Source of the DNA: a bacterium | Lineage (GTDB): Bacteria > UBA8248 | Assembly (NCBI GenBank): GCA_965225985.1 | Contig: OZ245330.1 | Coordinates: 3,612,983 to 3,676,982, forward strand | Length of the DNA stretch: 64,000 nucleotides | Reading direction: 5' to 3' | In this document: positions 20,022 through 45,820 of the stretch, one piece after another | Layout of the letters: the number at the start of each line of letters is the position of its first letter | Numbering within the stretch: the stretch's first letter is position 1 | Position numbers and translations under genes: made by a program | The notes under the pieces: model-generated | Database searches by the model: none | What the model was told of the DNA's origin: nothing | The model's input: only the letters and a program-made list of their open reading frames with translations

Positions 20022-21748
20022 GCGGCCTCCTCCCTCTCCTCGCCCGGAACCAACGCTTCGTGCAGAAGGGCTTCGAGGAGCCGTTGGCGGGTGTCGTCGG
20101 CGTTGGTGAGGGCAGCCTCAAGACGGTCGCACAGCGCCATTAGTTCATCGACCTTCGCGACGATGCGGCGTTGTTCGGCAAGGGGTGGGAGGGGTATCGG
20201 AATAGCGCGCAGCTTGTTCTGCGAGATGTTCATCTGCATCACTGCCATGCCCGACTTAGCGGCTTCAATCTGGTCAAAGGTGTAACCAGCGTTCAGGGTC
20301 AGCGCGATGTAACGCGCTGATAGCTCGCCGATGGCGTGGAAGCGAATGAGTTTGTCCGAGATCATCAGTTTCGGACACGGCACATCGACTACGCATGACA
20401 CGCCAACCCGGTTCTTGGGGCCGGCGCGAGTGACGAGAATGTCACCAATTTCCGCCTGATACTGCGGGCGCGGTTCCAGCTTCTCCGGAAGCTTCTTATG
20501 CTGAATTGCGTCGAACGCAAGCGCCTGAACAGCGGTAGTCTTGAGGATCCCCCATTCTTCCTCATTTGATCGCGGGTGATTTTCGCATTGCGGGCTCCAT
20601 CCCGCGTCCATACCGCGAATTATGGCTCCGAGCGGCATCCAGGACCAAGTCTTGGGAAGATCGCCACCGCAATCAGAAGGGTCAAGCGGATTCAATAGCT
20701 TTCGCGTATTGGGAGGAAGATCGTACAGGCCGAGCATATTCGAAACAACCGGCTCGTCCTTCGGGTCCTGTGCCGCCAGCTTGCCGCGCACAGCGAGGTT
20801 GAGGATGGTTTGGCGCAGCACCTTGATCTGGTCAGGGCGGGCGGTGAGAGGAACGAGATTTTCGAGAGCGAAGGCGGCGTGGACCCGGAATATTGCCGGG
20901 TCCGGATCGGGCGCGTCGAGGCGGACGAGACTCGCCGCCGTCAGCCGGTCCCGCGTTGCTTCCCGCTCCGCTCGCGCCGCCTCCAGCCCGTCGCAAAGCT
21001 CCATCAGTTCGTCGAACTTGGCGACGATGCGATGTTGCTCGGCGAGGGGTGGGAGGGGGAAAGGCAGTTGAAGAAAATTCCGGAGCGAGATTCCGCCGAT
21101 CACACCCGTCATCTTTTCGGCAAACTGCGCGTAGAAAAAATCGCTCAGGTAAACACACAAGACAAACTTTGGTGAGATCACGCCCCAAGTCTCATTCGCC
21201 AAGAGCTTGTTGCCAAAACTAATTTCACGGTCCGTCAAAGCGATCTTTCTGCCGGCGCTCCCGCCCTCAGCGCAGATCAGGACTGAGTCAGACCGCGCGA
21301 TTTTAAATCTTTCATCCGAGAGTTCGACCAAAAGGCCGTTTGTATAGTCGATCTCGTCAAACCCGTAGCCAACGTCTTTGGTCGCAATGAATGGGCGGCC
21401 TTCTACCGTCTTTTCTAGCTGCTCTCGCGTTGCCGCGTTGATGCTATTCCCGGTGAAGATATTGCCGGTCTCGCCAAGCGGTAGCCACGTCCAGTCAGAC
21501 GGCGGGTCGAATGGAGCACGGGTGATGGAATTGAGAGGTTTAGCGCGCTTGATTTCTCCCCTGGCTACTCGCTCTTTGCGTTCCACTTCGATCCGTTTCA
21601 ACAGTTCCGACGTCGGTTCGTCGTTTGCATTCTGTTCCATCAGCTTGCCGCGCACGGCAAGATCGAGGATGAACCGCCGCAGACGCGAGATGGCGTCGGG
21701 CGCGTCAGCGACCTGTTCGTAATGCGCAAGTAGTTGATCGGCGTTCAT
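20018..21748 (-). CDS. hsdS: Type I R-M specificity subunit
   Basis: LRRFILDLAVRGKL and two PLPPLAEQ.RIVAK repeats flanking two TRDs; start MNADQLL at 21748. Confidence 0.95.
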   Translation of the reverse strand: MNADQLLAHYEQVADAPDAISRLRRFILDLAVRGKLMEQNANDEPTSELLKRIEVERKERVARGEIKRAKPLNSITRAPFDPPSDWTWLPLGETGNIFTGNSINAATREQLEKTVEGRPFIATKDVGYGFDEIDYTNGLLVELSDERFKIARSDSVLICAEGGSAGRKIALTDREISFGNKLLANETWGVISPKFVLCVYLSDFFYAQFAEKMTGVIGGISLRNFLQLPFPLPPLAEQHRIVAKFDELMELCDGLEAARAEREATRDRLTAASLVRLDAPDPDPAIFRVHAAFALENLVPLTARPDQIKVLRQTILNLAVRGKLAAQDPKDEPVVSNMLGLYDLPPNTRKLLNPLDPSDCGGDLPKTWSWMPLGAIIRGMDAGWSPQCENHPRSNEEEWGILKTTAVQALAFDAIQHKKLPEKLEPRPQYQAEIGDILVTRAGPKNRVGVSCVVDVPCPKLMISDKLIRFHAIGELSARYIALTLNAGYTFDQIEAAKSGMAVMQMNISQNKLRAIPIPLPPLAEQRRIVAKVDELMALCDRLEAALTNADDTRQRLLEALLHEALVPGEEREEAA

Positions 21749-23202
21749 CGCAAGAGCGCCTCTGCCAGGATCGCCTTGAACTGATCGCGCAAGGCCGATG
21801 CTTCGGTCTCGGCGGCAGTCAGTTCCTTCAGCACTTCCTCCGGATCGCCGTGGTCGTCGTCTAGCGTGTGCGGGTTTTTGATGTCGAGGTTGTAGCCGCG
21901 CGCCTTGACCTCGTCGGCCGTCACCTTCCAGGCGCGTTCGGTTTCCTCGCGGCCCCCGCGGTCCGTCCCACCCCACCAGTCGATGCAGCCTTGCAGATGC
22001 TCCAGCCGGATCGGCCTGGTCATGGAGTAGGCCTTCTGACCCTCGGGCACCAAGTGCTCGTAGAACCAGATGTCCCCGGTCGGCTCGCCCTTCTCGAAGA
22101 ACAGCAAATTGGTACCGATGGAAGCGTAGGGCCGAAACACGGAATTGGGTAGCCGCACGATGGTGTGGAGGTTGCATTCCTCCATGAGATGTTCCTTCAG
22201 CCGTGTCTTGACGCCCTCGCCGAACAGCGATCCGTCGGGCAGGACCACGGCAGCGCGCCCGCCCGGCTTCAACAGGCGGATGATGAGAGCAAGGAACAGG
22301 TCCGCCGTTTCCCGCGTGCGGAAATGCTGCGGGAAGTTCGACTCGATGCCATCCTCCTCCTTGCCGCCGAAGGGCGGATTGGTGAGCACGATATCGACAC
22401 GGTCCTTTTGCTCCCAGCCGACATAGGGGCGGGCCAGGGTGTTGTCGTGGCGCACGAAGCTCGGGTCCTCGATGCCATGCAGCAGAATGTTGGTGACGCA
22501 GAGCATGTGGGGAATCTGCTTCTTCTCAACGGCACGTAGCGCTGCCTGCATGATCTGCTCGTCCTCGGGCCGCTTCACATAGCGTTCGCGCATGTGGCGC
22601 AGCGAACAGGTGAGGAAGCCGCCGGTACCGCAGGCGGGGTCGAACAGGATCTCGCCGGGCTTCGGGTCGATACGGTCGGCCATGAAGGCGGTGACGGCGC
22701 GCGGCGTGTAATACTCGCCGGCGTTGCCCGCCGATTGCAGATCGTTGAGAATCTGCTCATAGATATCGCCGAAATGCTGGCGTTCGGACAGGTCGTTGAA
22801 ATCGACCTCGTTGATCTTGTTGACCACTTGGCGCATCAGCTGGCCGGATTTCATGTAGTTATGGGCGTCCTCGAACACGTCGCGGACGACGCGGAGACGG
22901 TCGCCGGGCTGACCGGTCATCGACAAGTTCTTCAGGGTAGGAAACAGGTCGTCATTTACGAAGGCCACCAGTGCATCGCCCGTGATGCCCTCGGGGTCCG
23001 CCGCCCAGGTTCGCCACTGATACGCTTCCGGGATCGGCGAGGCGTAATCGTCGCGCATCAGCACCAGTTCCTGATCCTGATCGTCGATAATCTTGAGGAA
23101 GAACATCCAGCACAATTGACTGATACGCTGGGCGTCGCCGTCGACGCCGGTGTCCTGACGCATGATGTTCTGGATGGATTTGACGAGGGTGCGGACGGAC
23201 AT
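21745..23202 (-). CDS. hsdM: Type I R-M N6-adenine methyltransferase
   Basis: GEYYTPR, DPACGTGGFL, TNPPFGG. Confidence 0.97.
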   Translation of the reverse strand: MSVRTLVKSIQNIMRQDTGVDGDAQRISQLCWMFFLKIIDDQDQELVLMRDDYASPIPEAYQWRTWAADPEGITGDALVAFVNDDLFPTLKNLSMTGQPGDRLRVVRDVFEDAHNYMKSGQLMRQVVNKINEVDFNDLSERQHFGDIYEQILNDLQSAGNAGEYYTPRAVTAFMADRIDPKPGEILFDPACGTGGFLTCSLRHMRERYVKRPEDEQIMQAALRAVEKKQIPHMLCVTNILLHGIEDPSFVRHDNTLARPYVGWEQKDRVDIVLTNPPFGGKEEDGIESNFPQHFRTRETADLFLALIIRLLKPGGRAAVVLPDGSLFGEGVKTRLKEHLMEECNLHTIVRLPNSVFRPYASIGTNLLFFEKGEPTGDIWFYEHLVPEGQKAYSMTRPIRLEHLQGCIDWWGGTDRGGREETERAWKVTADEVKARGYNLDIKNPHTLDDDHGDPEEVLKELTAAETEASALRDQFKAILAEALLR

Positions 23203-23205
23203 GGG

Positions 23206-25656
23206 TCAGGCGGTCTCCTGGTACAGGGCGGATTGAAGTTCGTGGACGGCCCCGACGAAACCGTCGCGCCCGCCGAACGCCCCGATCAGTTGAACCGGGG
23301 TGCCCAGTTCCGTGAAGGGCGAGATGCGCAGGACGGTGGCGTCGTCGAGGTTGAGCACGCCCTCGTCGGCGTATTTGGCCAGCAGGGCATCGAGCACGGT
23401 GCGGGCCTGGTCGCCATACTTGGTGAACACGTCCCGCTTCTTGACCTTTTCGGCCCTCTCGCGCCGGGTCAGCGGCTTCGCGTCAAAGGCGATGTGGCAG
23501 ATCAGGTCGAAGGGGTCGAGGTCCTTGCCCAATTCTCCGGCGATGATGTCGAGAGGCAGACCCTCGGCCGTCAGTTCCTCGACGATGGTCTGTTTGCGCT
23601 CGACAGCCTTCCAACGCTTCAGGAAATCGTCGAGGCTGGCGAAGCGTTTTCGCAGCGCCTTCTTTGTGAAGTCGCGTAGGGATTCGGTGACTAGCTTGCC
23701 GTTCTCGTCGAGATATTCGACCCGCTCGGCGATGATGGTCGCGCCGACGCCGTCTACGTAGACCTTGCGCATGCCGCCACCCTCAAGCGGCAGGGTGATA
23801 TCGGGTGGACTGTCCACGATGGTTTCGTCCTCGCCCGGTTCCGCTGGAATACCATCTTCGTCGTCGTCCATGGGTGGTACGTCGTCGGGCGGCGTGATCG
23901 GATCATCGTCCTCGGGTTGGTAAATCTGCACAGGCTCACCATCGAAATTCGGGTCGGCGAAATGGCTGGTCGCCCCCCGGAAGTCCATCAGGGTGAAATA
24001 GAATTTGCGGGTGTCTTCGTGAACGCGGGTGCCCCGCCCGACGATCTGCTTGAACTCGGTCATGGAACCGACCGCGCGGTCGAGCACGATCAGCCGACAG
24101 GTCTGTGCATCGACGCCGGTCGAAAGCAGCCGCGATGTGGTGACCAGAACCGGGTATTTCGAATAGGGGTCGATGAAGTTGCCGAGTTGCCCCTGTCCTT
24201 CGGTGTCGCTGCCGGTGATGCGCATAACATAGCGGTGGCTCTCGTCCACCAGATCGGCGTTCTCGTTGATCAAGGCTTGGCGCATACGAGCAGCGTGTTC
24301 CTGATCGACGCAGAAGATGATCGCCTTCTGGAAGTGGTCGCCGCTTTCTTTCAGATATTCGGTGACCTTGGCCGCGACGAGTTTGGTTCGGTCGTCCAGC
24401 ACCAGCGTGTGGTCGAAGTCTTTCGTGTTGTAGATCCTGTCCTCGACCTCGTTTCCCTCGCGGTCGAGCTGACCCTTTTCGGAGCGGTAGCCTTCCACGT
24501 CGCGGTCAACGTGAACCTTGATGACCTTGTAGGGAGCCAGGAAACCGTCGCGGATGCCTTGCTTGAGGGAGTAGGAGTAAACCGGCTCGCCGAAGTAATG
24601 GATGTTGGAGACGTATTCGGTTTCCTTGGGCGTTGCGGTGAGGCCGATCTGTGTCGCCGACGAGAAGTAATCCAGGATTTCCCGCCACGCTGAGTCCTCG
24701 GCAGCGCTGCCACGATGGCACTCGTCGATCACGATGAGGTCGAAAAACTCGGGCGAGAACTCCCGGAAGATCTTCTGGCTTTCCTCCGGCCCGGTGATCG
24801 CCTGATAGAGCCCGAGGTAAATCTCGTAAGCGGTGTCGATGCGGCGCTTTCCGTCGATAGTGCTGGTCAGGTCCTCGGAGGAGCCGTCCGCGCGTTCGAT
24901 GGTCTTGGCTTTCGTCGAGAGCTTGGCCATCGCCGATCCGAACGGCCGGAAGTCGTTGACCATGGTCTGGTCGATCAACACGTTGCGGTCGGCCAAGAAC
25001 AGGATGCGCTTCTTGCGGCCCGCCTTCCAAAGGCGCCAGATGATCTGGAACGCGGTGTAGGTCTTGCCGGTACCGGTCGCCATGACCAGCAGGATGCGGT
25101 CGCGGCCCTTGGCGATGGCCTCCATGGTAGCGTTGATGGCGTTGACTTGGTAATAGCGCGGCGCTTTGCCGCTGCCGTCGTCGAAATAGTCCTGAAGAAC
25201 GATCTCCTCAGCTTCCGGCGTCAGGCCTTTCCAGTTGCGAAAGCGCATCCACAGATCGCCGGGTGACGGGAAGTTGTCGAGGCCGAGCGTGGTTTCCCGC
25301 TCGGCGCCCGCGCCCGTCCGGTCGTGGAACACGAAGCCGTCGCCGTTCGACGCGAACACGAAGGGGATGTCCAGAGTCTCGGCATACTCCAACCCCTGCT
25401 GCATGCCGTCGCCACTGGCGTGGGTGTTGTCCTTGGCCTCGATCAGCGCGATGGGGATGTTGGACTTGTAATAGAGGATGTAATCGGCGCGCTTCCCCTT
25501 GCCCCGGCTGACCAGCTTGCCGCGAACGATGATGCGACCCTTGGTGAAGCTGACCTCCTCACGGATTTGCGTCATCTCGTCCCACCCGGCCTTGCGCAGG
25601 GCCGGCGTGATGAACTTGGTGCAGATGTCGCGTTCGCTGAGGCTTTTCTTTTCCAT
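23206..25656 (-). CDS. hsdR: Type I R-M restriction subunit (EcoEI/EcoAI-like)
   Basis: LSERDICTKFITP, ADYIL..IEAK, MATGTGKT, IDECHRG, LTATP, QIVGRGTR; true start MEKKSLSE at 25656. Confidence 0.96.
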   Translation of the reverse strand: MEKKSLSERDICTKFITPALRKAGWDEMTQIREEVSFTKGRIIVRGKLVSRGKGKRADYILYYKSNIPIALIEAKDNTHASGDGMQQGLEYAETLDIPFVFASNGDGFVFHDRTGAGAERETTLGLDNFPSPGDLWMRFRNWKGLTPEAEEIVLQDYFDDGSGKAPRYYQVNAINATMEAIAKGRDRILLVMATGTGKTYTAFQIIWRLWKAGRKKRILFLADRNVLIDQTMVNDFRPFGSAMAKLSTKAKTIERADGSSEDLTSTIDGKRRIDTAYEIYLGLYQAITGPEESQKIFREFSPEFFDLIVIDECHRGSAAEDSAWREILDYFSSATQIGLTATPKETEYVSNIHYFGEPVYSYSLKQGIRDGFLAPYKVIKVHVDRDVEGYRSEKGQLDREGNEVEDRIYNTKDFDHTLVLDDRTKLVAAKVTEYLKESGDHFQKAIIFCVDQEHAARMRQALINENADLVDESHRYVMRITGSDTEGQGQLGNFIDPYSKYPVLVTTSRLLSTGVDAQTCRLIVLDRAVGSMTEFKQIVGRGTRVHEDTRKFYFTLMDFRGATSHFADPNFDGEPVQIYQPEDDDPITPPDDVPPMDDDEDGIPAEPGEDETIVDSPPDITLPLEGGGMRKVYVDGVGATIIAERVEYLDENGKLVTESLRDFTKKALRKRFASLDDFLKRWKAVERKQTIVEELTAEGLPLDIIAGELGKDLDPFDLICHIAFDAKPLTRRERAEKVKKRDVFTKYGDQARTVLDALLAKYADEGVLNLDDATVLRISPFTELGTPVQLIGAFGGRDGFVGAVHELQSALYQETA

Positions 25657-25719
25657 TGCGATCAACGCTCTCTGGTGTCGTTCCGGCTCATGCCTGTTCC
25701 CTCTTCGCGGGCGGTGTTC

Positions 25720-26359
25720 CGTGCTCGTCCATCGTCGGCGGCGACACCGCGCGATCACGCACGCGTCCGACTGATAGGCCGTCGTCCGCGACTTCACGAC
25801 GGCGAACATGGTCAGGTCGCACATTTTGTCGACCTCGTCGAGCACAACCAATGGCGCGCTGTACGACGACCGCCCCGTCTTCATCTCGGGCGACAGGCCG
25901 CGGATGGTGCCGCCACCCGCCAGTTGCGTGGCGAGCGCGCTGTCTCGTTTTGCTCGCCGGGCATCAGCTTCGCCGACTCGTCGACCAAACCGCCGATCTG
26001 GTGAAGCGGCGGCCGGATGCGCCCGATCATGAAATCCCGCAGCAAGATCCGGTCGGGCTCGTAGAACAGCACGTCCTCGCCGTTCGCCTCCATCCAGACG
26101 GCCATCGTGATCGCGAACTCGGATTTCATAAGCTGGGCCGGCACGCACACCGTCACGATCTCGACCCGCCGGTCAGATAATAGCGCCGCCATCGGCCCCA
26201 GGGACATCGGAGCGTTCGCTGAATTCCATGGGCCGGGCCTCGACCCGCCGACCACCCTACTGTATTTTACCGCCACTCCGTCAACGCCAGACGCGGTGCC
26301 GCAGCGGCTTCGAACAGCCCAGCGAGGCCCGCCCATGTCTCGGTGTGGAGTTGGGTCAT
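25720..26359 (-). pseudogene. Terminase large subunit (lambda GpA-like) ATPase-domain remnant
   Basis: VTVCVPAQLMKSE (Walker A-like), VLFYEPD, VVLDEVD (Walker B), SRTTAY; frameshifted and truncated at hsdR; ATG overlaps the upstream stop. Confidence 0.7.
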
Positions 26360-32077: not shown

Positions 32078-32249
32078 CAGACCGAGAAAATCATCGATTC
32101 GACGACATGACGGCGCTCCCTACGGGCCGCCGTTCACGTTGTGCAATCGGTAAGATTATCGTCGGCGAGGGCGATTAAGCGTTCATCGTCGCACAAAGGC
32201 GTCGGTGGACGTACGGCAGGAGATTGCGCGCCGGCAGGACTTGTGCGAT

Positions 32250-32411
32250 CGGCTGAGGCAGCCGACGACCTCAAGGTGTGCCGCGCCGAGGCCGGCACCG
32301 AAAAGATGCGGACCTTCGCCGCCTTCGACTACGCCGCCCGCTCCTGGAAGCGCGAACGCTGGGTCATCGCCCGTCTGGAGGCGACCACGCGCGGCTTCGA
32401 TGCCCGCTATA
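32250..32411 (+). mobile_element. IS1380 family transposase fragment
   Basis: RTFAAFDYAARSWKRERWVIARLEATTRGFDARY. Confidence 0.7.
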
Positions 32412-32504
32412 GCCCCGTACCCCATTATAACTCTCGACAATCGCCGTGAGATCCAAGCTCTCGCTCACCAGATCACGAACGAAGTGAGCCGAGTGTTCCA
32501 AAGG

Positions 32505-33510
32505 GGCTTTGGTGCATGGACCCGTCGAGGGGTAGTCTGTATGGGTTCGGTTCCGTTTTCGAGGGTTTGGGCATGCCGTACAAGTTCCACGCGTCGCGTC
32601 GCCACCCTATCCCAACAGCCAGGTACCGGGTCACGACCTGGCCGGATTATGACCGCGGTTCGGCGCGGCGATATCCGTTTCTGGATCGACGAAAGCGTTC
32701 TGGAGAAATGGACCGCCCCAAAACGGCGAACTCCTGGTGGCCAGCGGTGGTTTTCAGGGTTGGCGATTTCCACGACACTGATGCTGGGAGCAGTATTCAG
32801 ACTGCCGCTCCGCCAGACGGAAGGCTTTGTGCGCTCCATTGTGGGCTTGATGGGGTGGGATTTGCCGGTGCCGGATCACACCCCGCTGTCCCGGCGGCGA
32901 ACGGTGGATGTCGCTCTGGAAACCGGCACGAACAAGCAGCCGACGGATATCGCGCTGGATTCCGCGGGTCTCAAATTCTTTGGCGTTGGCGAGTCTCGTG
33001 CCAAGCATGGTGAAGCGCGGTGCTCATGGCGCAAGCTGCATATCTCGGTTGACCCGGCCCGCAGCGAGATCCGGGCGCATGAATTGACCGGTGACGACAC
33101 GGCAGATGCAACGATGGCGGGACCGCCGGCCGCCGGTTCCGGCGGGATGATCCGGCGCGTGTTTGCCGGCGGCGCCTATGATGGGGAGCCCGTGACAAAA
33201 GCGATCTGAGAAGCTCAGCCACCGAATTCACCACCTGAAATCATCGTTCCGCCACGCGCCGCATCCATTCCTCCACCGGACACGCCTCATGGCGGATCGG
33301 AACGGGAGCTGCATGCGGCGGAGATCGCGTCAAGAGGCTCAACGGCGGCAAGCTGACCGCTCGCACATTCCAATCCCAACAAAACGAAATCGCCGTTCAG
33401 ATCGGCGCACTCAATCGTTCCATCCGAGCAGCGAAGCCAAACACAATCAGGATCCGCTAGCCAATCGAGGGATAGGCAATCACAACATCTCGACTCAATG
33501 CACCAAAGCC
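32505..33510 (+). mobile_element. IS5 family (IS903-group) element with degenerate transposase
   Basis: 13-bp IRs GGCTTTGGTGCAT/ATGCACCAAAGCC; RRGDIRFW, LPLRQTEGF, DSAGLK, WRKLH; shifts and stops. Confidence 0.88.
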
Positions 33511-33560: not shown

Positions 33561-34052
33561 TTGAATATAGATATGGCGGCAGCCCAAGCCATTGCCCTGC
33601 GTCGGGTTGCGGACGACCTCCAGGACAGTCTCAACCGCATGACACGGAGTGGCTCCCCCAACCCGATCACCGAAAAAGAGCAGGTAGCGAGGGTTTCAGG
33701 TTACTTTTTGTCGACGGTGATTTTGCGCGCCTTGGCGACCGAGCTCATGCTGAAGGTCTTGTGCTTCAAGAAGGCAGGTCGATACAGGAAGGACAGAGAG
33801 GGTCACGATCTGCTGGTCTTGTTTAATGATTTGGACAGCGACACCAGGAAGTTGATAGCGGATCTCGAGAGAAGTCACGGAATCGCGCCGCTGCAGCAAA
33901 TCCTTGAGAAACACCGAGGTGACTTCGTGGATTGGCGATACCTGATGGAGGCAGGTGGAAAGCACGTCGACCTCCTGGATCTGGACAAGGCGTTGATCAT
34001 ACTCATGGCCACATACACACACAAGGACTTTCACCGTCTTTGCGCTTCATAA
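33561..34052 (+). CDS. HEPN-like domain protein
   Basis: ALATELMLK, EGHDLLVLF, FVDWRY; all-helical, about 160 aa. Confidence 0.65.
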   Translation: MNIDMAAAQAIALRRVADDLQDSLNRMTRSGSPNPITEKEQVARVSGYFLSTVILRALATELMLKVLCFKKAGRYRKDREGHDLLVLFNDLDSDTRKLIADLERSHGIAPLQQILEKHRGDFVDWRYLMEAGGKHVDLLDLDKALIILMATYTHKDFHRLCAS

Positions 34053-34065
34053 CATGGAAATATTT

Positions 34066-35091
34066 GGCTAAATTAGCGATTCGTATGGGCATTTGGTAAA
34101 GCGTCTGAAATCGATGGAGGTTTCGCGATGAAGCGACCGGGGTTTCAGGATTGGCTTTCGAAGGTGGATGGACTGAGCGAAGCGCAACGTCGCGAGGCTT
34201 TGGAAGTGTTGTCGGGGCAGCCGGAAGGCGCCGCTTCGTTGGCGGCCGTCGAGCTGGGGGTGGATGAGGATCGCCGCTGCCCGCGTTGCGATACGCCTGG
34301 GGCTGTGTCTCGGGGCAAGGCGCGGGGTCTGCGGCGCTATCAGTGCAAGGGTTGCGGACGCACGTTCAACGCGCTGACCGGCACGCCGTTGTCGGGCTTG
34401 CACCACAAGGAGCGGTGGCTGCCCTTCGGCAAGGCCCTTTCGAGGGGGGAGGCACTGTGGGCCTCGATCGAGCGCTGTGATGTTGCGGTGACCACGGCGT
34501 TTCGCTGGCGCCACCGGTTTCCCAAGGCGGTGGAGACGGCCCCCGATAAGCTCAAAGTGATCGTCGAGGCCGATGAAACCTATGTTTTCAAGAACCGCAA
34601 GGGCGGGCGGACGTAGGATCGCAAGGCGTGCCGACGCGGCGGCAAGGCCGCTAGGCGCGGGCTGTCGCGCGAGCAGGTTCCAGTTCTGGTTGCCGCCGAC
34701 CGTGGCGGCGCGACGCACAGCACGGTTCTACCGGGGGGGTACCGGCGATACCCTGAAAGAGGCCCTCGAGCCGATCGTCGAGAAGGATATCCTGCTGGTC
34801 TCCGATGGCCACCGCGCCTATCCGCCCTGCGCGGCGGCGCTCAGCATCCGCCACGAAGCGCTCAACCTGTCCGCCGGAGAGCGGGTTCGCGACGCCCTTC
34901 ACATCCAGACCGTCAACAGCCGCTACGGCCAGCTAAAGGAATTCCTGCGCCGCTACCGAGGCATCGCGACCAAGTACCTCGACAGCGCTCTGCGATGGTT
35001 CCATCTCATCGGCTTGGTCAGCCAATCCTCCCCAAGAGCCTGTCTCGCAGCCGCCATGAACAGATCATGCATACAATTCACTAATTGAGCC
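34066..35091 (+). mobile_element. IS1595 family element, transposase inactivated
   Basis: Imperfect IRs GGCTAAATTAGCGATTCGTATG / GGCTCAATTAGTGAATTGTATG; CPRC..CKGC zinc finger, VEADETY, HIQTVNS; stop at 34614 and a shift near 34735. Confidence 0.9.
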
Positions 35092-35435: not shown

Positions 35436-35528
35436 ATGGGTTTCGCCCAACATGTTGCGGCACCTTCCGACGCAACAGTGTCCCGAACGGACAGCGAGAA
35501 ACAACAGACACTTTCCGGAGAACGCACT

Positions 35529-36653
35529 ATGGCCTTTGAACTCCCAGCGCGTGGGCTAGTCTTTTGGCCCGTTGGAAACGGCGACAGCACAACCGTCGTT
35601 GTCGATTCCGAGACCTGTCTACAGGTTGACCTGAACCATCTTGGGAAGTCCGACGACGATGACGATGCCAGTTGGGCCGTTGTCGATGAGCTTGTCGAAC
35701 GGCTGCCCAAGGTCAACGCACTCCCGTATCTGGCCGCATTCGCCCTGACACACCCCGATCAGGACCATTGCCGGGGCTTCGCTGAGCTGTTCGAGGAGGT
35801 CGACATTGGCGAACTGTGGTTCACTCCGAAGATCTTTCGGGAGTACAACAAGGACCTCTGCGACGATGCGGAGGCGTTCAAGAAGGAGGCGGAACGCCGC
35901 GTCAAGAAGACGATCGAGGCCAAGGGCGACCCGGGCGTTGGCAACCGCGTTCATGTCTTCGGCTATTCGGAACTACTGGAAGAGAATGACTTCAAGAATT
36001 TCCCCAAGGATCGGCTGACCGTTCCCGGCAACGAAGTCACCGTGATCGATGAGAAGGACGTGTCCGACGAATTCCGCGCCTTTGTCCACGCCCCGTTCAA
36101 GGACGATGACGCCGGCGATCGCAACGATACGAGCCTCGGCATGCAGATCACGCTCTACGATGGAACCCAAAAGCTTCGCGCCCTACTCCTTGGGGACCTT
36201 TCCTACCCGATCATCAAGCGTATCTTCGAGGTCAGCGAGGCTGACGACCTCGCTTGGAACGTGCTCCTCGCACCGCACCACTGCTCGAAGGCCGCAATGT
36301 ACTGGAAGGACGAGGGCGACGACGCGGAGAAGATCAAGAAGCACATCGTCGACAAAATGGAAGAGACGTCACAAGCTCCGAATCGTGTCGTATCGAGTTC
36401 CAATCCGGTACCGTCATCCAACGAGCCTGGAGACAATCCGCCCCACGCCAAGGCAAAGACGCAGTACGAGACCATCACCGACTCCTTCCTTTGCACGATG
36501 GATCAGGACGACCCGATCGTGGCTGAACTTGACGACCAAAAGATCGTCCTTGCCGGGGCCGCGACAGCTTCCATGTCCGCATCGCAGGCCGCGGGCGAAG
36601 CGCGGGGCTCGAAGGAGCCGCCCAGAAGTGCCCACACTTACGGCCGGGGCTGA
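35529..36653 (+). CDS. ComEC/Rec2-type metallo-beta-lactamase-fold hydrolase
   Basis: FWPVGNGDS, LTHPDQDHCRG, NDTSL, LLLGD, APHHCS; SD GGAGA; intact; tail ends EPPRSAHTYGRG. Confidence 0.9.
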   Translation: MAFELPARGLVFWPVGNGDSTTVVVDSETCLQVDLNHLGKSDDDDDASWAVVDELVERLPKVNALPYLAAFALTHPDQDHCRGFAELFEEVDIGELWFTPKIFREYNKDLCDDAEAFKKEAERRVKKTIEAKGDPGVGNRVHVFGYSELLEENDFKNFPKDRLTVPGNEVTVIDEKDVSDEFRAFVHAPFKDDDAGDRNDTSLGMQITLYDGTQKLRALLLGDLSYPIIKRIFEVSEADDLAWNVLLAPHHCSKAAMYWKDEGDDAEKIKKHIVDKMEETSQAPNRVVSSSNPVPSSNEPGDNPPHAKAKTQYETITDSFLCTMDQDDPIVAELDDQKIVLAGAATASMSASQAAGEARGSKEPPRSAHTYGRG

Positions 36654-39600
36654 TGACTGATGCCTACAAACTCGCCGGGGAGCAGATAAGGGAGATCGCG
36701 GACGCATCCGGCGGCACCGTTCAATTACATGACGAGACAACGCGGCCAAATGGCTACCGCCGATTCGACATAAGCATCCGCTTCGACGGCTTGGAGCGCG
36801 TCGAGGACGGACTTCCCGTGCGAGCTCGCGAGCTGTTCCGCGTCGTTGTCCCACCTACCTTTCCTTTCAACCACCCCTTTGTCGAGACACCGCACGTTCG
36901 CTTCTCTGGCTTCCGTCACGTCCAGTGGCGGCGGCACCCCTGCCTATACGAGAGTCCCACCGATTGGCGCCCAGAGGACGGCATGTACGGCTTTATCAAG
37001 CGACTAGACGCTTGGATACGTGACGCCGCGGTGAATAACCTCGACCCGAACGACGCGCCCCTACACCCGCCAGTTGCGTATCCCACTGTCAACCGCCTGA
37101 TCGTGCCCAGGGCAGATACGCCTTTAGTTGCCGGCTCGCCATGGATTGGAGTGACCGAACTCCGGAAACGGAACAATCGCACCGAGATCATCGGTTAGTA
37201 CAAGCATGGTGAAGAACGCCTGGCTCACTTTGCGCCCGCAATTCTCCTGCACGAGGACCTCCCCTTCGAATACCCCGAGACTGTCAACGCCCTTTTGAAA
37301 GAGCTCGAATCCCACGGCATCGACTATGCCCCGTTCATCCTCCAACTCGCCTCGTACGCACGACACAGTGACGCAGGGACACTGCTCACCGTGGTCCTCG
37401 GGACTCCTATGCGCCGCGTCGTTCCAGGCGGGTGTGACCTTCAGCACCTCGCCGTGTGGGAAATCTCCGCTGACGACGCGGACAAGCTGCGCAAGTTGAA
37501 CATTTCCGCGCAGGTCGGCGACACGGCTCAATGGAACGCAGCGGTGAAGGCGGTCGCCAATTGGTCCGTTTTGGCCAAGGTCGGGTGGTGCATCGTCCGC
37601 GAGATGCGTCCTGAGGTCACCAGGAGGCGAGACCACTCGTCTCCCATGGCGTGGTTTCGCGAAAAGCGTGTGGCCATCTGGGGATGCGGCGCCGTCGGGA
37701 CCCACGTGGCGGAATCCGTCGTGCGGGCCGGTGCCAGAACCGTCGAACTCGTCGACAACAAGACTGTTGTCCCCGGCCTCCTTGTACGGCAAGGTTTCGA
37801 AGACGCCGACATAGGAAAGTTTAAAGCCAACGCACTCGCCGAAAGGCTCAAAAGGATCGAGCCTGACCTTAAGACGGTTGTTTCAACCGACGACCTCATC
37901 CTGCGCATCAAGGGTCCCGACCCGGTTCCGAAAGTGGACTTGGTAATCGACTGCACAGCTTCATCGGCCGTTCGGACGGCACTCGAATACGCGCTCCGGG
38001 GCGTCGACTCACGTCCCGCGATGGCCTCTATGTCCGTCGACAACCAGGCCGCCACGGCTATTGCTGCTCTCTCGTCGCCCAACCACAGCGGTGGGACGCT
38101 CGATCTTGTTCGGCGGCTCAAGCTGGAAGCATGTCGAAGGCCGACACTTTCGAAAGTGCTTGAGGCGTTCTGGCCAAGATCTACGTCAGGTGAGCGCTTT
38201 CAGCCGGAGCCCGGTTGTTCGGAACCGACGTTCATCGGTTCCAACGCGGACCTTGCCGGGCTCTCGGCGCGCATGCTGAATTCCGTCGCTCGCGCTATCG
38301 CGAAGCCCCGCGACTGCCACACGGGGGCGGGTTTGGTTGTTTGAAGAATCGGGACCGGTACATGTCTTCGCATGGCCTCCTGACCACACCCTGAGGGACA
38401 AGGGGCGGGGCTATTCTGTCAGGGTGTGTTCACACGCTGCGCGAGAAATGCGCGGCTGGGCCAGACGCTCCGCGCGTACGGCCGGAACAACGATTGAAAC
38501 CGGCGGTCTCGTCTTCGGCGAATTGAACGAAGCTGCGGGCGTTCTCTGGGTGACGGACGTGGAGGGGCCGCCGCCCGACAGCGACGCGGCTGATGATCAC
38601 TTTACCTGCGGCACGGAAGGCATGGAAGACGCTGCCAAAGAAAAGCACTGCCGGTTCCGCGGATCCGTAGATTGCGTCGGTAGTTGGCACACCCACCCAA
38701 CGTCGACACCACATCCAAGCCGCGTCGACATCGGCGCTGTCGCACAGCTTCTCGCTGACCCTGACTCGACCCGCCGAACTTGCCTTGTCCTGATCCTCTC
38801 GGGCAACCCCGACGACCCATCCCTCGGCGCGTACGCCTTTAGAACAAAACTGTCCGGCGAGAATTTCATCTGCATCCAATGGAGCGCCGCAGCAACAGCG
38901 TGCCTCGGGCGGCAGCCCAAGAAACCGCAGAACGTCGGGCTCGCCCTCTCCGGCGGAGGTTCGCGCGCTATCGCGTTCCACCTCGGATGCCTGCGCGCCT
39001 TGCACGACCTTGATCTCCTCAGCCGTGTTCAGGTGATTTCGAGCGTCTCCGGCGGGTCTGTCATCTCGGCGATGTACGCCTATTCCAGTGGCTCGTTCCG
39101 GGAGTTCGAGGCGCGCGTTGTAGAGCTTCTGCGCCGAGGACTCCACCGCGACATCTTCCGCGAGGTGCTCAGACCGGACTCTATCAGGAAGTTTCTCCAA
39201 AGCCGCGTCGCCACGAGTGCATCCTTTCTCGTCCGCATGCTCCTTCGCTTGGTTCGCGCCGCCGTACGACCGGGCGTGTCTACTCGCCGAAAGCCACCGC
39301 TGGTGCGCACGTTTAGCCGCACGGAGGCGTTCCGTGACGTCATCGCTAAGTCCCTGTTCGGTGACACCATTGTGCGCGATGTCGCCCGACAGTCGCTCCA
39401 TACAGTCATCAATGCCACTGAACTACAGGCCGGCTCGGCATTCCGGTTCGGAAGCAGGCAGAGCGGCTGCTGGCGATTCGGGACGATCCCCCCCGAAGAT
39501 GTTCTCGTTGCCGACGCCGTGGCTGCCTCGGCAGCCTACCCGGTTTTGCTCCCGGCACTTGAGCGCAAGTACCGATTCACCAAGAATGGGCTCACCACAG

Positions 39601-40067
39601 ACCTGACGCGCGTTCTGCTCACCGACGGTGGAGTCTTCGAGAATCTCGGCGTAAGTCCGATGGAGCCCGGCAGGACACCCTCGATCAGCACTAACGTCTT
39701 CGACCCCGACTACATCATCTGCTGCGACGCCGGTGCAGGACTATTCGACGATAACAGCTACCCGACGCGTTGGCCCAGTCGGATGTATAGATCGTTCCTC
39801 ACGGTCTTTCGCAAGGTCCAAGACGCCACACGGTAACAGCTGCACCGCCTCGCGGATGCCGACGAAATCTCGGGTTTCGCGCTGTGCTATCTCGGGCAGC
39901 AGGACAATGCCTTGCCCTGGGTTCCGGCAGGACTCCCTGGACGGGACGAGGTTCGGGATTACCCAACCGACTTCGCCGCCATGTCAACAGAAGGCATCGA
40001 TCGCCTGGCGCTTCGTGGAGAACTCCTGATGAGGTTTCTCGTCGCTTACTACCTCCCAGACCTCTAA
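36653..40067 (+). pseudogene. E2-E1(ThiF)-JAB-patatin fusion, interrupted by two in-frame stops and one frameshift
   Basis: E2 (VPPTFPF..HVQWRRHPCLY), E1 (GCGAVG, VDNK..VRQ, IDCTA, PGCSEPTF), JAB (ETGG, WHTHP..PSRVD), patatin (LSGGGSRA, SVSGGS, DGG); TAG 37196, extra T near 38333, TAA 39834. Confidence 0.85.
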
Positions 40068-40091
40068 CGATCGATACAAGAGTGGCGAAGA

Positions 40092-40243
40092 TCATGAACC
40101 GGAAGCATGCTTCCAGCCTTCGCCCAGAATATCGGTCGCGATGCTGTCGGCGATGCGGGCCGCGGCCTCCTGCACCGAATCCCGCGCCAGATGCGCGTAG
40201 CGCGCCGTGGTCTCGATCTGGCTGTGGCCTAGGAGCTTTCCGC
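40092..40243 (-). pseudogene. Tyrosine integrase C-terminal remnant
   Basis: GKLLGHSQIETTARYAHL; truncated by the adjacent IS. Confidence 0.8.
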
Positions 40244-40246
40244 AAA

Positions 40247-41073
40247 GAGGTTGTTGAAAAAGCCCTGGTTCTGTGATTCCCTGGGTCGATGACTTGTGTT
40301 TGATATCGGGAGGGTACGAGATGTTGGGACGGAAGAGCCGCGACCAGCCGGAGTTGTTCATCACCGGTTCGCTTGAGCAACTGGTGCCCGAGGATCACGT
40401 CCTGGCTCGCGTTGACCGCGTTCTGGACCTTGGCTGGCTGGGTGAGGAAGTCTCGGAGTGCTATTGCGCTGACAACGGCCGGCCGGGCATCGACCCGGAG
40501 GTCGCGGTGCGCTTGATGCTCGCCGGCCTTCTGCTCGCTTTGTGCACGACCGCAGGCTGATGCGGGAAGCGCAGGTGAACATCGCGATCCGCTGGTTCAT
40601 CGGCTGTGGTTTGCACGAGCGGCTGCCCGATCATTCGAGCCTGACCCGGATCCGCCAACGCTGGGGCGAGACACGGTTCCGGGAGATTTTCCAGCGCACG
40701 GTGAGGGCCTGCCTGGATGCGAAGATCGCCACGGCCGAGGTTGTGCACATCGATACCTCGCTGGTCCGGGCCGATGTCAACTGGGCGAGCCTGGTCGAAC
40801 GTCATGTGGATGAGGTGATGACGGAGAACCGCGGCGAGGAGACGGTCGAGGCGGAGAAGAGGCGAGGCCGGCGGCGTGGCAAGTCCGGGAAAGTGAGCCG
40901 CACCGATGCGGATGCGAGCATGGCGACCTCGGCGTACAACCGGCGTCTCGAGCCCTGTTACAAGCAGCACACGGCGGTCGACGACGCGAGAGGTGTGGTG
41001 CTCGACGTTGCGGTGACGCCGGTCGCGCGATCGCGACGGTGACGGCGGATGCCGGTTATGCCTACGCCAGGGT
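40247..41073 (+). mobile_element. IS1182-like transposase, frameshifted and truncated
   Basis: LEQLVPEDHVL, GRPGIDPE, LPDHSSLTRIR, HIDTS, SRTDADA, TADAGY. Confidence 0.85.
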
Positions 41074-42243
41074 TGTGCTCCGCAAAAATTGGATCCTACA
41101 TAAAATGAAGGACTTATAAAGGTCGCTCCGATGGGTCCCGGCGTGGCAAGATCCACGTCATGCAAATAACCAAAGCGATTATTCAGGTAGTCATCGACTT
41201 ATTTTCACTTCTTTCTCTCCTCCTGCGTTCACGGGGCAGATTGGCCGCCGAGAATCTCTTCCTGCGCAAACAGCTTGCTTACTATCAAGAACGGGACATT
41301 CGGCCACGCCGGCTTGATCCGGCAACCCGGCTCACGCTTGTTGGACTCTCCAAATTTTTCAATTGGAAGGATGCGCTGGTGGTCGTCCAGCCAAAGACTT
41401 TGGTTCGCTGGCATCGTGAGGGTTTTCGCCTGTTTTGGCTGGAAGTCGAGGGCTGGCAGGCCATCCATCCCTGAGGAGTTAAGAAGATTGATACGGCAGA
41501 TGGCCCGCGAGAACCCCTTGTGGGGCGAGGAGCGAATTGCGAATGAGTTGCTCCTCAAACTTGGCCTCCGGGTATCTCCCCGAACGGTGCGGAAGCACAT
41601 GGCGAAGAGACCGTCAGGCGGGCCACGTGGCGATCAGCGCTGGTCCACCTTCTTGCGTAACCACGCTGAAGCGGTTCTGGCGTGTGATTTCTTTGTTGCT
41701 GTCACAGTAACATTTCAAGTCTTGTACGTTTTCATCATTCTGAAGCATGGCTCCCGGCGAATTCTGCATTGCAACGCAACGGCTCACCCCACCTCCGGGT
41801 GGACACGGCAACAGCTGCGTGAGGCGATACCCTCCGACCACCAGTACAGATTTCTGATTCATGACCGGGGCAGGGTTTTCTCAGAAGATCTAGATCGTAC
41901 TGCCGAAAACATGGGATTGCGTGTGCTCAAGGCACCGTATCGAAGCTCCCAAGCGAATTCGATCTGTGAGCGGACCATCGGGTCGATGCGGCGAGAATGT
42001 CTGGATCACATGATTCCGCTAACGGAAAATCATCTCCGGCGGGTTCTCGAAGATTGGATTGCTTATTACAACAGAGCGAGACCCCATTCTGCACTCGGGC
42101 CGGGGGTGCCTGGGCCGACAAAGGACACCCCTGTAACCCTACAACACGGACGACATCGAATTGGAGACGGTCGGAAAGTGGTCTCCAGGCCGGTCCTGAA
42201 CGGGCTCCACCATGAATACTTCCTCGTCCCGCGTGCAGCCTGA
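41074..42243 (+). mobile_element. IS with integrase-core (rve) transposase, frameshift near 41440
   Basis: LAAENLFLRKQL, ENPLWGEERI, ACDFF, LIHDRG, ERTIGSMRRECLDH, YYNRARPH, GLHHEY. Confidence 0.88.
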
Positions 42244-42249
42244 CGGTGG

Positions 42250-42632
42250 ATGGAGTCGATGGCGAGTACGCGGGGTCCATCCCGGAGTGCTCGATGGTGG
42301 TCGGAGACGACACCTATCGGAAGCTCGCGGCGCTCGTGAACATGGGTAGTGGCGAGACGGCGGCCATGACCTATCATCGGATGCTGGCGGGCTTCATGGC
42401 GTCGAGCAACGTCACCGCGCCGGACGCCAACGATCAGGAAGGCATCCTTGCCAAACGCGGCGCCGGCACCAACGCGCTGTGCCCCATGTGGGGCGGCGTG
42501 ACCTTGATTGTCGATGAGGTCAGCTCGGCGAATCGAAAGGCCGGCTGGATCTCCCTGACGGCCGTGTTGCTGTCGGACTTCAAAGTCACCCGCAAGGACG
42601 GCTTCACCCGGGTGGCGTTCCAGCTCGCATGA
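42250..42632 (+). pseudogene. Phage major capsid protein C-terminal fragment
   Basis: PMWGGVTLIVDEVSSANRKAGWISLTAVLLSDFKVTRKDGF, like HK97-fold C-termini; 5' part replaced by the IS. Confidence 0.6.
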
Positions 42633-43129
42633 GCGCGCTCGAAAGGCGATGGGCGGCGCTGGAGGTCCGTGACGACGGCGCCGTCGTCGAGGGCGTCGCC
42701 ATGCCCTACGGGTCCGTGGCGCGCATCCTCGGCGCCTTCGACGAACGGGTGGAGCCCGGGGCGTTCGCCGGCCTCGACGACGTGACGCTGAACAGGATGC
42801 ACGTCCGGGAGGACATCATCGCCCGCACGGGCGGCGGTGGCCTCGTTCTCGACGACAACGCGAGCCGGCTGCATCTTCGCGCCGACGTTCCCGAGTACCG
42901 CGCCGACGTGCGGGACCAGGTGGCGCGGGGGATCCTCCGCGGCATGTCGGTCGAGATGCGGGTCACCGCCGAAGACTGGCCGGCGCCGGACCAGCGCATC
43001 ATCCGGGCCGCCGAGCTTCACGCGGTCGCCGTCGTCGACCGTGCGGCCTACGGCGACACCACGCTGTCGCTCGCGAAGCGCGCGAAGGACGGCGGCGTGG
43101 AGGTCCGGTGGTGGCCAATCGTGGTGTAA
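42629..43129 (+). CDS. HK97 family prohead protease
   Basis: VEGVAMPYG, FDERVEPGAF, LNRMH, LRGMSVEM, VAVVDRAAY. Confidence 0.85.
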   Translation: MSALERRWAALEVRDDGAVVEGVAMPYGSVARILGAFDERVEPGAFAGLDDVTLNRMHVREDIIARTGGGGLVLDDNASRLHLRADVPEYRADVRDQVARGILRGMSVEMRVTAEDWPAPDQRIIRAAELHAVAVVDRAAYGDTTLSLAKRAKDGGVEVRWWPIVV

Positions 43130-44955
43130 GCGCACTTCGACGATGGGCTGAACGTCACGTCATCGTCGGCGACGGTCCCCGGGCGGCCGGCGGTGGCGGG
43201 CGGGCGGGGCGCCGTGGGCCGAAGTACTCGACGCGATGGACGACCGGACCCTGGAGCAAGTCACCGTCCGCGGGTCCGTCCAGTCGGGCAAGACTGCATC
43301 CCTGTTGGTCGCGGCCCTGGGGCACTACGCCGCCGGGCGATCGGTCCTGTTCTACGAGCCTGACGAAGCACTGAAGCGCGCCATGTCCGCGCGCATCCGC
43401 GCCTGGGCGCGCGCCTGTAGCGACCCCGTGGTGTCGGAGCCCTGGGAGCGGCCTCGACCCCCGCACCATCGCACCAACGACGCAGGCGGGCGCTTGGAGG
43501 TTCTGAGCGCGGGCCAGCGCACTACTACCCTCATGAGGACCGCCGAGATCGTCATCCTCGACGAACTGAGAGCGTTCGGCCGCGACATCGTTCTGGAGTT
43601 GATAGACCGCATGGCGGCCTTCTCCGGAAGAGGCAGGTTGATTACGGCCTCGTCTGCCGGCGAGGAGGATGCCTGTCGCACCACCACCGAGCTTGAGAAG
43701 TCCGACGCGAGGCACTGGTTCATCCCCTGTCCAGCGTGCGGACAGTCGGCTCCGGCACAGTGGTCGAACGTCATCATCGCGAAGGCGACGACCCGACCGC
43801 CGACCTACGCGATGCCATGCTGCAAGGCGATGCTCGGCGCGCAGGCGTTCAAGCGTGCGGTAGCGGCTGGACAGTGGAGGTCGACCCGCACGGCCGCGGT
43901 GCCAGCGACCCGGGGATACCACGCGGATTGCTTCCTGAGTCCGTTCGAGACGCTGGCGACCATCGTGCGGGCGTGGAAGCGGGCGAACCATCACCGCAAG
44001 CAGACATCCTCGATGGCCGAGATCAGAGCGTTCCAGCAGGGCAGGCTCGCACTCCCGTTCCGGCCGGAGCCTGCACAAGGCGTCACGCCGGAGATGATCG
44101 CCACGACCTGCCGTGAGGCGTACGAGAACGTGCCTGGAGGCGCGTGCGTGCTTACGTGGGGTCGGTGGACACGCAAGACAACCGCCTGGAGGTGCGAAAT
44201 CAGCCGCCTGGGGGCTCGTGGAGGTCGACAAGGCCGAATCCGAGACGACAGGCGTACGCGGGTGGGAGCAAGCCGGCTATCACGGCTTGGCGCACGGTGG
44301 ACGCTGGTATCGACTCCGACGGTGGGCGATCGAGTACCGGAAGATCCCCGGCGACCCCGGCACCGCGCAGCCGTGGGACGAGCTGGCGAGGATGATGGAG
44401 ACCCCGCGCGAGCACGCGAGCGGGTGTCTGCTGCGTCCCGTCATCGTCGGCATCGACTCCGGTGGTCACTACACCGAACAGGTTGCGGACTTCGCGAAGT
44501 CCCGCGGCGCCGGCTACCAGTGCTTGAAGGGACTACCGCCGACCCGCTTCGGTGGCGTGCTGATGCGGCGGTCGGTGACGCAGGACGCGCTACACGACTA
44601 CGGATCGAACGGCTTGGGGCTGGTATGCACGAACGCGGGCAAGGCGTCCGTGTTCAGCCTGCTACGCCAGTCCTGCACCGGCACCGTCCCGCGACCCATG
44701 ACGTGGCCGGCTGACGAGACGTTCTACGGTCCCGAGCAATTCGAGGGGATCTGCTCCGAGACCCTGGAGCGCGTCGTAGACAAGCGCACCGGGCGGACCC
44801 GGCTCCAGTGGAAGAAGATCGGACGCGCGAACGAGGCGCTTGATCTGCTCGTCTACTCGCTCGCGTGCGTCTCTCACCTGGGCATTCCATTCCTGCTCGC
44901 CGAGCGCGAGCTGATCGAGGCAACGACCGATGCGCGCTATTCCAACGCTGCATGA
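43108..44955 (+). pseudogene. Terminase large subunit, lambda GpA family (frameshifted)
   Basis: SVQSGKT, VLFYEPD, VILDE, PCPACG, VDTQDNRLE, IDSGGHYT, NEALDLLVY; shifts near 43190 and 44160-44205. Confidence 0.88.
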
Positions 44956-45730: not shown

Positions 45731-45820
45731 TGGCGGAGAGGGAGGGATTCGAACCCTCGATACGCGTCAACGTATACACGCTTTCCAGGCGTGCTCCTTA
45801 AGCCACTCGGACACCTCTCC
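45731..45820 (-). tRNA. tRNA-Ser (anticodon GGA)
   Basis: Reverse complement GGAGAGGTGTCCGAGTGG..CCTGGAAAG..GGTTCGAATCCCTCCCTCTCCGCCA. Confidence 0.97.

Follow-up and report, generated by a model that had tools for sequence, protein, structure and literature searches.

In a 64,000-nucleotide stretch of the bacterial contig OZ245330.1 (hereafter the window), a gene for a metallo-beta-lactamase (MBL)-fold enzyme is followed by a second gene, here called the ligase gene, in which an E2-like domain, an E1 adenylation domain of the ThiF type, a JAB/JAMM peptidase and a patatin-like phospholipase succeed one another. The locus is probably a copy, inactivated not long ago, of a horizontally mobile, two-gene antiphage cassette of 4.5 kb, which belongs to a patatin-bearing subtype of the 6A-MBL system and whose mechanism can be proposed by analogy.

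On direct reading, the MBL gene runs from ATG 35529 to TGA 36651-36653, and the A of this stop is also the A of the ATG at 36653 that opens the ligase gene (TGATG), an overlap already noted in a first-pass annotation made from the sequence alone. The ligase frame meets a TAG at 37196-37198 (…TEIIG*YKHG…) and is then open in the same frame to 38341. Joining it to the uninterrupted open reading frame (ORF) 38337-39836, which holds the JAB/JAMM peptidase at about 38481-38801 and the patatin-like phospholipase from about 38940, requires a one-base shift within GGTTTGG, and beyond TAA 39834-39836 the frame stays open to 40065-40067. The E2-E1-JAB-patatin region is a single broken frame of 1137 codons coupled to the MBL gene; the proposal that its three ORFs had once been one gene of that size agrees with P0001, the closest intact homologue, which is exactly 1137 amino acids long. 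Pfam recognizes each of the four domains in the pieces of the ligase gene (Table 1), and the MBL ORF has no Pfam match and only weak MBL-type matches (about 1e-7) in PADLOC. The catalytic motifs that the first-pass annotation had seen in all four domains of the ligase gene do indeed occur in the window and show no variation across 43 diverse family members: E2 Cys97 (HPCLY) and E1 Cys522 (PEPGCSEP); the JAMM residues Glu615, His679, His681, Ser689 and Asp692; and the patatin GGGxR motif (767-771), Ser799 and Asp991-Gly-Gly. The ThiF glycine loop is likewise invariant in these 43 sequences.

The annotation had put the locus forward as a candidate new system. Because both components exceed the cut-offs of curated NCBIfam equivalog models, it is not one: judged by sequence, it falls within the known 6A-MBL system, as a subtype that bears a patatin-like phospholipase, and the suggested kinship with MBL-coupled E2-E1-JAB operons such as 6A-MBL is borne out. 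The MBL product of the window scores 286.1 bits against NF058524 (“6A-MBL system MBL-fold protein”; cut-off 220), and P0001, on which the second model was tested since the ligase gene of the window is broken, scores 355.5 bits against NF058523 (“anti-phage 6A-MBL system cap2_3 protein”; cut-off 320) over residues 52-714; the window pieces themselves were compared with Pfam and PADLOC. An existing model hence covers the ligase-protease part of this architecture: NF058523, of 665 positions, ends at residue 714 of 1137, before the patatin part. P0001 further matches the PADLOC E1-E2 model PDLC00857 (1.2e-87) and JAB model PDLC00890 (9.7e-17), and the JAB part matches the Cap3 model NF050170 (8.7e-5). 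The best solved relative of the family profile by sequence is Cap2 (7to3, E 2.5e-23), which is also the best fold match of a full-length model (mean predicted local distance difference test, pLDDT, 83.3; E 8.4e-21). Operon type 6a, as described in the accessible portion of Iyer, Burroughs and Aravind (2006; PMC1779556), comprises a triple-module E2-E1-JAB protein and a specialised MBL, in simple operons “usually with two genes”; the words “patatin” and “phospholipase” do not occur in that portion. The patatin-bearing subtype of 6A-MBL is widespread and apparently undescribed.

Lesions of the ligase gene and decay of the cassette

Where the window has TAG and TAA, P0001 has W and K, respectively, and it reads GAGWLFEESGP across the shift. 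This agrees with the first-pass reading of the TAG as a likely Trp codon and of one surplus T near an original AGWLFEE. The Trp (W182) is found in 12 of 12 aligned intact homologues, and the TAA at 39834 falls on position 1061, where relatives have K, R or N. In a 12-sequence alignment the conceptual product of the window is 89.3% identical to P0001 (1013/1135 positions) and departs from 6 of the 408 invariant columns, two of these six being the TAG and the shift site. The cassette gene is single-copy in its source genome, for which the standard code gives a completeness of 98.6%.

Logan contigs pass over each lesion with 0 differences and 0 gaps: over the TAG in runs X6 and X9, over the surplus T in runs X5, X6, X8 and X9, and over the TAA in runs X5, X6 and X9. 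These four runs represent two samples from two studies, one of them possibly the source of the window itself, and none of the Logan contigs listed for them has an indel variant at a lesion. One contig of run X8 reads AAA at 39834; it was assigned to a co-resident relative on account of its 25 other differences. The ligase-protease-lipase gene is dead, with two nonsense codons and one frameshift, and only the MBL gene is still open. As the annotation had supposed, the copy in the window is an inactivated one; it is recently inactivated, is without remaining function and shows how fast such cassettes decay. The same four runs contain many more contigs that are 90-99% identical to parts of the region 35500-40100. 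Among those aligned, 42 of 101 in run X5 and 55 of 138 in run X8 are only 90-95% alike, which suggests that several co-resident organisms carry related copies. Four “sponge metagenome” runs contain 0.07-0.11 of the sampled words, from which we draw no inference on habitat.

Cassette decay is recurrent across loci. Five more of the related loci described below are broken: in L020 about 1.8 kb splits the MBL gene, in L023 the ligase gene is present as two ORFs, in L025 an insertion lies ahead of the patatin part, L040 is cut off after residue 513, and L058 is in several fragments.

The MBL enzyme and its C-terminal glycine

The metal-binding motifs of the MBL enzyme (H75, D77, D79, H80, H250, H251, C252 and S253) are invariant in 28 sequences, the window included. 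Its AlphaFold2 (AF2) model has a pLDDT of 86.8, and the best fold match in the PDB is the MBL domain of ComEC (9ic4, E 3.7e-12, TMt 0.74), followed by the phosphorylcholine esterase Pce and RNase J. On these matches the enzyme may be a phosphodiesterase or a nuclease, the latter being the activity of the ComEC domain.

In 56 of 56 homologues the enzyme ends in ARGxxxPPxxx(T/G)(Y/F)G followed by 0-4 unconserved residues, with no extra residue in five of them, and the glycine (G372 in the window) is invariant in 28 of 28 aligned MBL sequences. A conserved glycine ahead of a dispensable tail characterizes precursors of ubiquitin-like proteins. By analogy, the (Y/F)G and tail suggest that it is the MBL enzyme itself that JAB trims and that is conjugated in a Cap2-like way. 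For each of these two steps there is a precedent in the accessible parts of earlier reports: Cap2 makes a thioester with cGAS's C-terminal glycine (PMC10097602), and BilC pre-processes BilA (bioRxiv 10.1101/2023.09.26.559546). We did not find a conserved, probably trimmed glycine at the MBL C-terminus in the searchable literature, outside which the key papers lie; it is apparently new here.

A model of the complex between the MBL enzyme and the E2-E1 part supports binding of the former to the E2 domain. It scores 0.80, as against 0.00 for the best of three controls. As a rough guide, obtained with our own alignments, this mark is reached by 58 of 80 solved complexes and by 2 of 110 mismatched pairs. 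At least 91% of the contacts are common to the runs, and the partners have a pLDDT of at least 86. The predicted interface is between MBL residues 283-359, the region of the C-terminal helix, and E2 residues 11-24, 41-61 and 111-120.

The patatin component, extent and surroundings of the cassette

Searching 1.84 billion cluster representatives (clustered at 50% identity) with the E1 piece yielded 298 at E <= 1e-30. The best 150 of these include 67 proteins of 700-830 amino acids, 7 of 950-1100 and 32 of 1100-1300, and a Patatin domain is present in 37 of the 39 representatives of at least 950 amino acids; all 39 of these long forms match NF058523 at E <= 1e-30. A search for related loci recovered 61, of which one (L062) holds an unrelated ThiF protein and was set aside; the other 60 are true relatives from many phyla, with 32-80% identity to the query in the best matched segment. 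Their first ORF is at least 1100 amino acids long in 37 loci, 950-1100 in 2, 700-950 in 15 and below 700 in 5, and none is called in 1. Among the 15 loci of the 700-950 class, 9 have a separate patatin ORF of 363-422 amino acids that begins where the ligase gene ends or overlaps with that end (L035, L044, L047, L048, L050, L052, L056, L057 and L060), and several of these ORFs open with a methionine shortly ahead of the GLALSGGG motif. Patatin is absent in 5 (L045, L046, L051, L053 and L054), and the remaining one, L025, is a long form split by its insertion. Judging by this gene content, patatin is a recurrent third component of the system, fused or adjacent, and fusion is not a defining trait. 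The first-pass claim of a lipase fused to the ligase-protease chain thus stands for 37 loci, and fails for the 9 with a separate gene and the 5 with none. No description of a phospholipase joined to the E2-E1-JAB protein was known to the annotation, and we found none in the searchable literature, the key papers and their supplements being beyond its reach; patatin as a recurrent third part of 6A-MBL is apparently new here.

In 30 diverse fused proteins, pairwise identity in the patatin part correlates with that in the E1 and JAB parts (r 0.66-0.67) about as E1 does with JAB (r 0.70), and mean identity is highest in the patatin part (0.44 versus 0.37-0.41 for the others). This parallel divergence is what one would expect if the parts had been associated and co-evolving for long, and not if unrelated lipases had been captured again and again. 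In an E1 tree of 115 rows, from which 35 of the 150 representatives were omitted (below 700 amino acids, or with an E1 match below 330 residues), long and short forms are interleaved, such that 26 changes are needed, at least 10 of them forced by well-supported branches. We dropped a reading of this tree as repeated gain and loss of patatin because many “short” genes precede a separate patatin gene; the pattern is therefore a mixture of fusion, fission and loss. The patatin part of the full-length model matches the CBASS effector CapE (9ion, E 2.4e-9, TMt 0.64), the sole patatin-type chain recognized in the list of fold matches. The linker between JAB and patatin varies in length and sequence and has neither a conserved glycine nor a JAB cleavage motif. 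The annotation had surmised that JAB cleavage might directly control the lipase. The variable linker and the split-gene forms argue against release of the lipase in this way, and we regard the idea as unsupported; the (Y/F)G and tail are found on the MBL enzyme instead.

The two genes form the whole of the conserved unit. In 56 of the 60 loci tblastn locates the MBL gene directly upstream of the ligase gene; two more diverged copies emerged from the ORF lists (L046 and L055), and the remaining two loci are cut N-terminally. No further ORF of at least 90 amino acids is conserved within 6 kb on either side in the 60 loci, the apparent ORF clusters of 9-54 loci being located inside the two genes or spanning them, either out of frame or on the opposite strand. 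DNA similarity in 48 related loci starts at 35444-35565 in those that reach the start of the cassette (median 35532 for the 48), and ends at 40052-40075 in those matched to its end (median 40065.5 for the 48); conserved ORFs below 90 amino acids outside 35444-40075 are excluded by this DNA comparison solely. The similarity limits and the lack of a conserved third gene therefore define a self-contained cassette of about 4.5 kb. Intact E2-ThiF-JAB-patatin proteins beside an MBL gene, the existence of which the annotation had left to be checked, are abundant over many phyla. A separate search for longer relatives of the JAB-patatin ORF gave 758 proteins at E <= 0.001, the best 120 of which all have ThiF and Patatin, most of them with 1135-1140 amino acids. 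None of 40 relatives of the source genome has the cassette gene at E <= 1e-20. The annotation's remark that no CD-NTase or ubiquitin-like gene is nearby extends further than the window: SMODS (PF18144) was not found in the whole 98.6%-complete genome, no third gene is conserved in the 60 loci, and Pfam scans of five window pieces and the 39 long-form representatives detected no ubiquitin-like family.

We rejected as a core component a family of about 240 amino acids with four predicted transmembrane helices, since its presence is inconsistent; it lies near five loci (L054:8189-9004, L045:3991-4782, L022:7512-8276, L059:13570-14310 and L021:9490-10218). It has hydrophobic helices at both ends, a conserved N-x-E-Y-G-F-x-R-N-L motif and zero Pfam or PADLOC matches, and lies beside both patatin-bearing and patatin-less loci; it may be an accessory membrane effector.

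The cassette sits in a decaying island of defence and mobile genes (Table 1). About 10 kb upstream is a type I restriction-modification (R-M) system (20018-26148, minus strand), in which ORF 20018-22177 overlaps HsdM, and insertion sequence (IS) fragments flank the cassette. Downstream, a phage remnant closes the island beside a tRNA-Ser, followed by housekeeping genes (acyl-CoA dehydrogenase, a sarcosine-oxidase-like gene and DnaX).

Table 1. Features of the cassette and of its surroundings in the window
Feature	Position	Strand	Evidence or remark
MBL-fold gene of 6A-MBL, intact, 374 aa	35529..36653	+	NCBIfam NF058524, AF2 model, invariant metal motifs
Codons of Gly372 (…HTYG) and variable two-residue tail RG	36642..36650	+	G372 invariant in 28/28 aligned; candidate site of JAB trimming and E1 adenylation
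E2-like domain (Prok-E2_A) of the ligase gene, ending at TAG 37196-37198	36653..37198	+	Pfam 2.6e-19
Linker and E1 adenylation domain (ThiF, Cap2-like), same frame as E2 piece	37199..38341	+	Pfam ThiF 2.6e-19; PADLOC PDLC00857 4.8e-64
TTT with one surplus T, +1 shift parting E1 from JAB	38332..38334	+	Compared with GAGWLFEE in P0001
JAB/JAMM and patatin ORF, ending at TAA 39834-39836	38337..39836	+	Pfam Prok-JAB 9.4e-8, Patatin 4.3e-20
Final 76 codons of patatin module and natural stop TAA 40065-40067	39837..40067	+	Aligns to P0001 residues 1062-1137
HsdM, type I R-M	21745-23202	-	N6_Mtase 2.3e-72
HsdR, type I R-M	23206-26148	-	ResIII, EcoEI_R_C, HSDR_N
DDE_Tnp_1_5 transposase	32205-33209		
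163-aa ORF between IS fragments, upstream of cassette	33561-34052	+	No Pfam match; not conserved beside related cassettes
IS1595-type gene, split over two ORFs	34128-35088		
Short recombinase-like fragment	40092-40364	-	No Pfam match
DUF772 transposase pieces	40273-41042		
rve integrase	41275-42243		
Prohead serine protease, Peptidase_S78	42629-43129		
Terminase large subunit gpA	43236-44714		
tRNA-Ser(gga)	45731-45820	-	

A proposed conjugation model, its rivals and known systems

By analogy with the action of Cap2 and Cap3 on CD-NTases and of BilC on BilA, we propose that the JAB domain would remove the 0-4 residues past the invariant (Y/F)G of the MBL enzyme and that the E1 domain would adenylate the glycine so exposed. 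The glycine would then be handed on in thioester linkage, first to the E1 Cys (PEPGCS) and next to the E2 Cys, and be ligated to a target, a conjugation that the JAB domain could also reverse. Upon infection, conjugation may prime or activate the ComEC-like MBL phosphodiesterase or nuclease, and the patatin module would serve as a second, membrane-degrading effector of abortive infection, retained in the same complex by fusion or as a translationally coupled gene.

Several points weigh against this model. Antiphage activity of 6A-MBL was reportedly demonstrated by van den Berg and colleagues in 2024, which we have from two citing texts and from the names of the NCBIfam models. For the patatin-bearing members, function is read from sequence and models; a nuclease activity of the MBL enzyme is predicted from its fold, and switching on a patatin effector without a nucleotide is conjectural. 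The model of the complex gives no confident contact for the last 15 MBL residues (360-374), among them the tail that would have to enter the E1 site, and its score may in part reflect likeness to the Cap2-CD-NTase complex, which has been solved. Moreover, the patatin module is remote in sequence from patatins of solved structure (for PlpD, E 3e-6 across some 50 residues), and its match to the PADLOC phospholipase effector model is a bare one (E 0.0017).

That the ligase gene is alive, its stops and shift being errors of sequencing or assembly or else bypassed by read-through and programmed frameshifting, we find hardly credible: the surplus T does fall in a short homopolymer and the rest of the product is still 89% identical to an intact relative, but independently built contigs from four runs repeat the same three lesions without a difference. 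Furthermore, these lesions are of three kinds (TAG, TAA and +1) and found in none of the 37 intact loci, four more invariant residues are substituted beyond the lesion sites, and the standard code accounts for the completeness of the genome. It is also very unlikely that the cassette is not primarily antiphage and is instead a selfish addiction or toxin-regulator module, or a factor of inter-bacterial or host interaction, that spreads horizontally among co-resident bacteria. A very patchy distribution, with no copy in the 40 genome relatives yet copies of 58-83% identity in many phyla, and repeated disruption, in the window as in the five other broken loci, would fit such a module, and the antiphage role of the patatin-bearing members is drawn from family models. 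However, defence systems are equally patchy and decay-prone, the equivalog models passed by both components are named for an antiphage system, the core is Cap2/Cap3-like, and the island is shared with a type I R-M system and prophage debris; no signal peptide or secretion-associated neighbour was noted, the neighbours having been tested for ORF conservation only.

Two further readings give the lipase a more central place. In one, the cassette performs CBASS-like signalling without a cyclase: an MBL enzyme primed by conjugation takes the place of the CD-NTase and makes or processes a small molecule that switches on the patatin, as cGAMP and cUA do for CapV and CapE. The MBL gene does occupy the position of a CD-NTase gene beside a Cap2/Cap3-like protein, its product has a conjugatable C-terminal glycine, the best patatin-type structural match is the nucleotide-activated effector CapE, and patatin equals the ligase in degree of conservation and diverges in step with it. 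Against this, at least five related loci, like the 665-position cap2_3 model of NCBIfam, are without patatin, and in such systems the MBL enzyme itself must be the effector; MBL-fold enzymes are hydrolases, the nearest fold being a DNA-uptake nuclease domain, and no ligand-binding domain was identified. On balance we consider this reading doubtful. In the other, which is possible although we would not expect it, the cassette is related to type II CBASS but has no cyclase, and a CapE-like phospholipase is gated by conjugation and not by a nucleotide messenger: the MBL glycine would be ligated to the patatin module, to a phage protein or, in the manner of ATG7 and ATG3 with ATG8-PE, to a lipid of the membrane, and membrane lysis would be unleashed, whether or not the MBL enzyme also supplied a small molecule. 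If the lipase were indeed gated by conjugation, its fusion, fission and loss would offer a natural series for studying how an effector that kills the cell is linked to ubiquitin-like conjugation.

Conjugation of the Cap2/Cap3 type has so far been understood as a tuner of a nucleotide cyclase, and 6A-MBL puts this machinery at the service of a hydrolase. The patatin-bearing subtype, with at least 37 clusters at 50% identity in many phyla, adds a membrane-lytic effector without a cyclase and so raises the question of what governs a lipase of the CapV/CapE type when there is no second messenger. The invariant (Y/F)G and tail on the MBL enzyme provide a precise handle for biochemistry. For annotation, the curated models reach only residue 714 of 1137 and miss a separate patatin gene, which leaves these systems incompletely named.

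In relation to 6A-MBL as catalogued, the cassette has the same E2-E1-JAB triple-module protein and specialised MBL-fold gene, without a ubiquitin-like protein or a cyclase, and the C-terminal (Y/F)G of the MBL enzyme is also found in the patatin-less loci L045, L051, L053 and L054. It differs in the patatin-like phospholipase of about 380 residues, appended to JAB (37 loci) or encoded by an overlapping third gene (9 loci). With type II CBASS it shares an E2-E1 part whose best solved relative is Cap2 by both sequence and fold, a JAB-type peptidase like Cap3, a patatin-type effector, with CapE as the best patatin-fold match, and a partner enzyme with a conjugatable C-terminal glycine (for CBASS, from the accessible part of PMC10097602). 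In contrast to CBASS, an MBL hydrolase replaces the cyclase, the counterparts of Cap2, Cap3 and the effector are fused in one chain, and 1-4 additional residues usually come after the glycine. The E1, E2 and JAB chemistry, with JAB pre-processing that exposes a glycine, is likewise that of the Bil (BilABCD) and Bub systems, as far as the accessible parts of their descriptions go (10.1101/2023.09.26.559546; PMC11601596). Unlike these systems, the cassette has no ubiquitin-like beta-grasp protein and no DUF6527, its E1 is Cap2/ATG7-like with a crossover-loop Cys rather than a tandem IAD-AAD-CYS arrangement, and the moiety conjugated would here be an enzyme.

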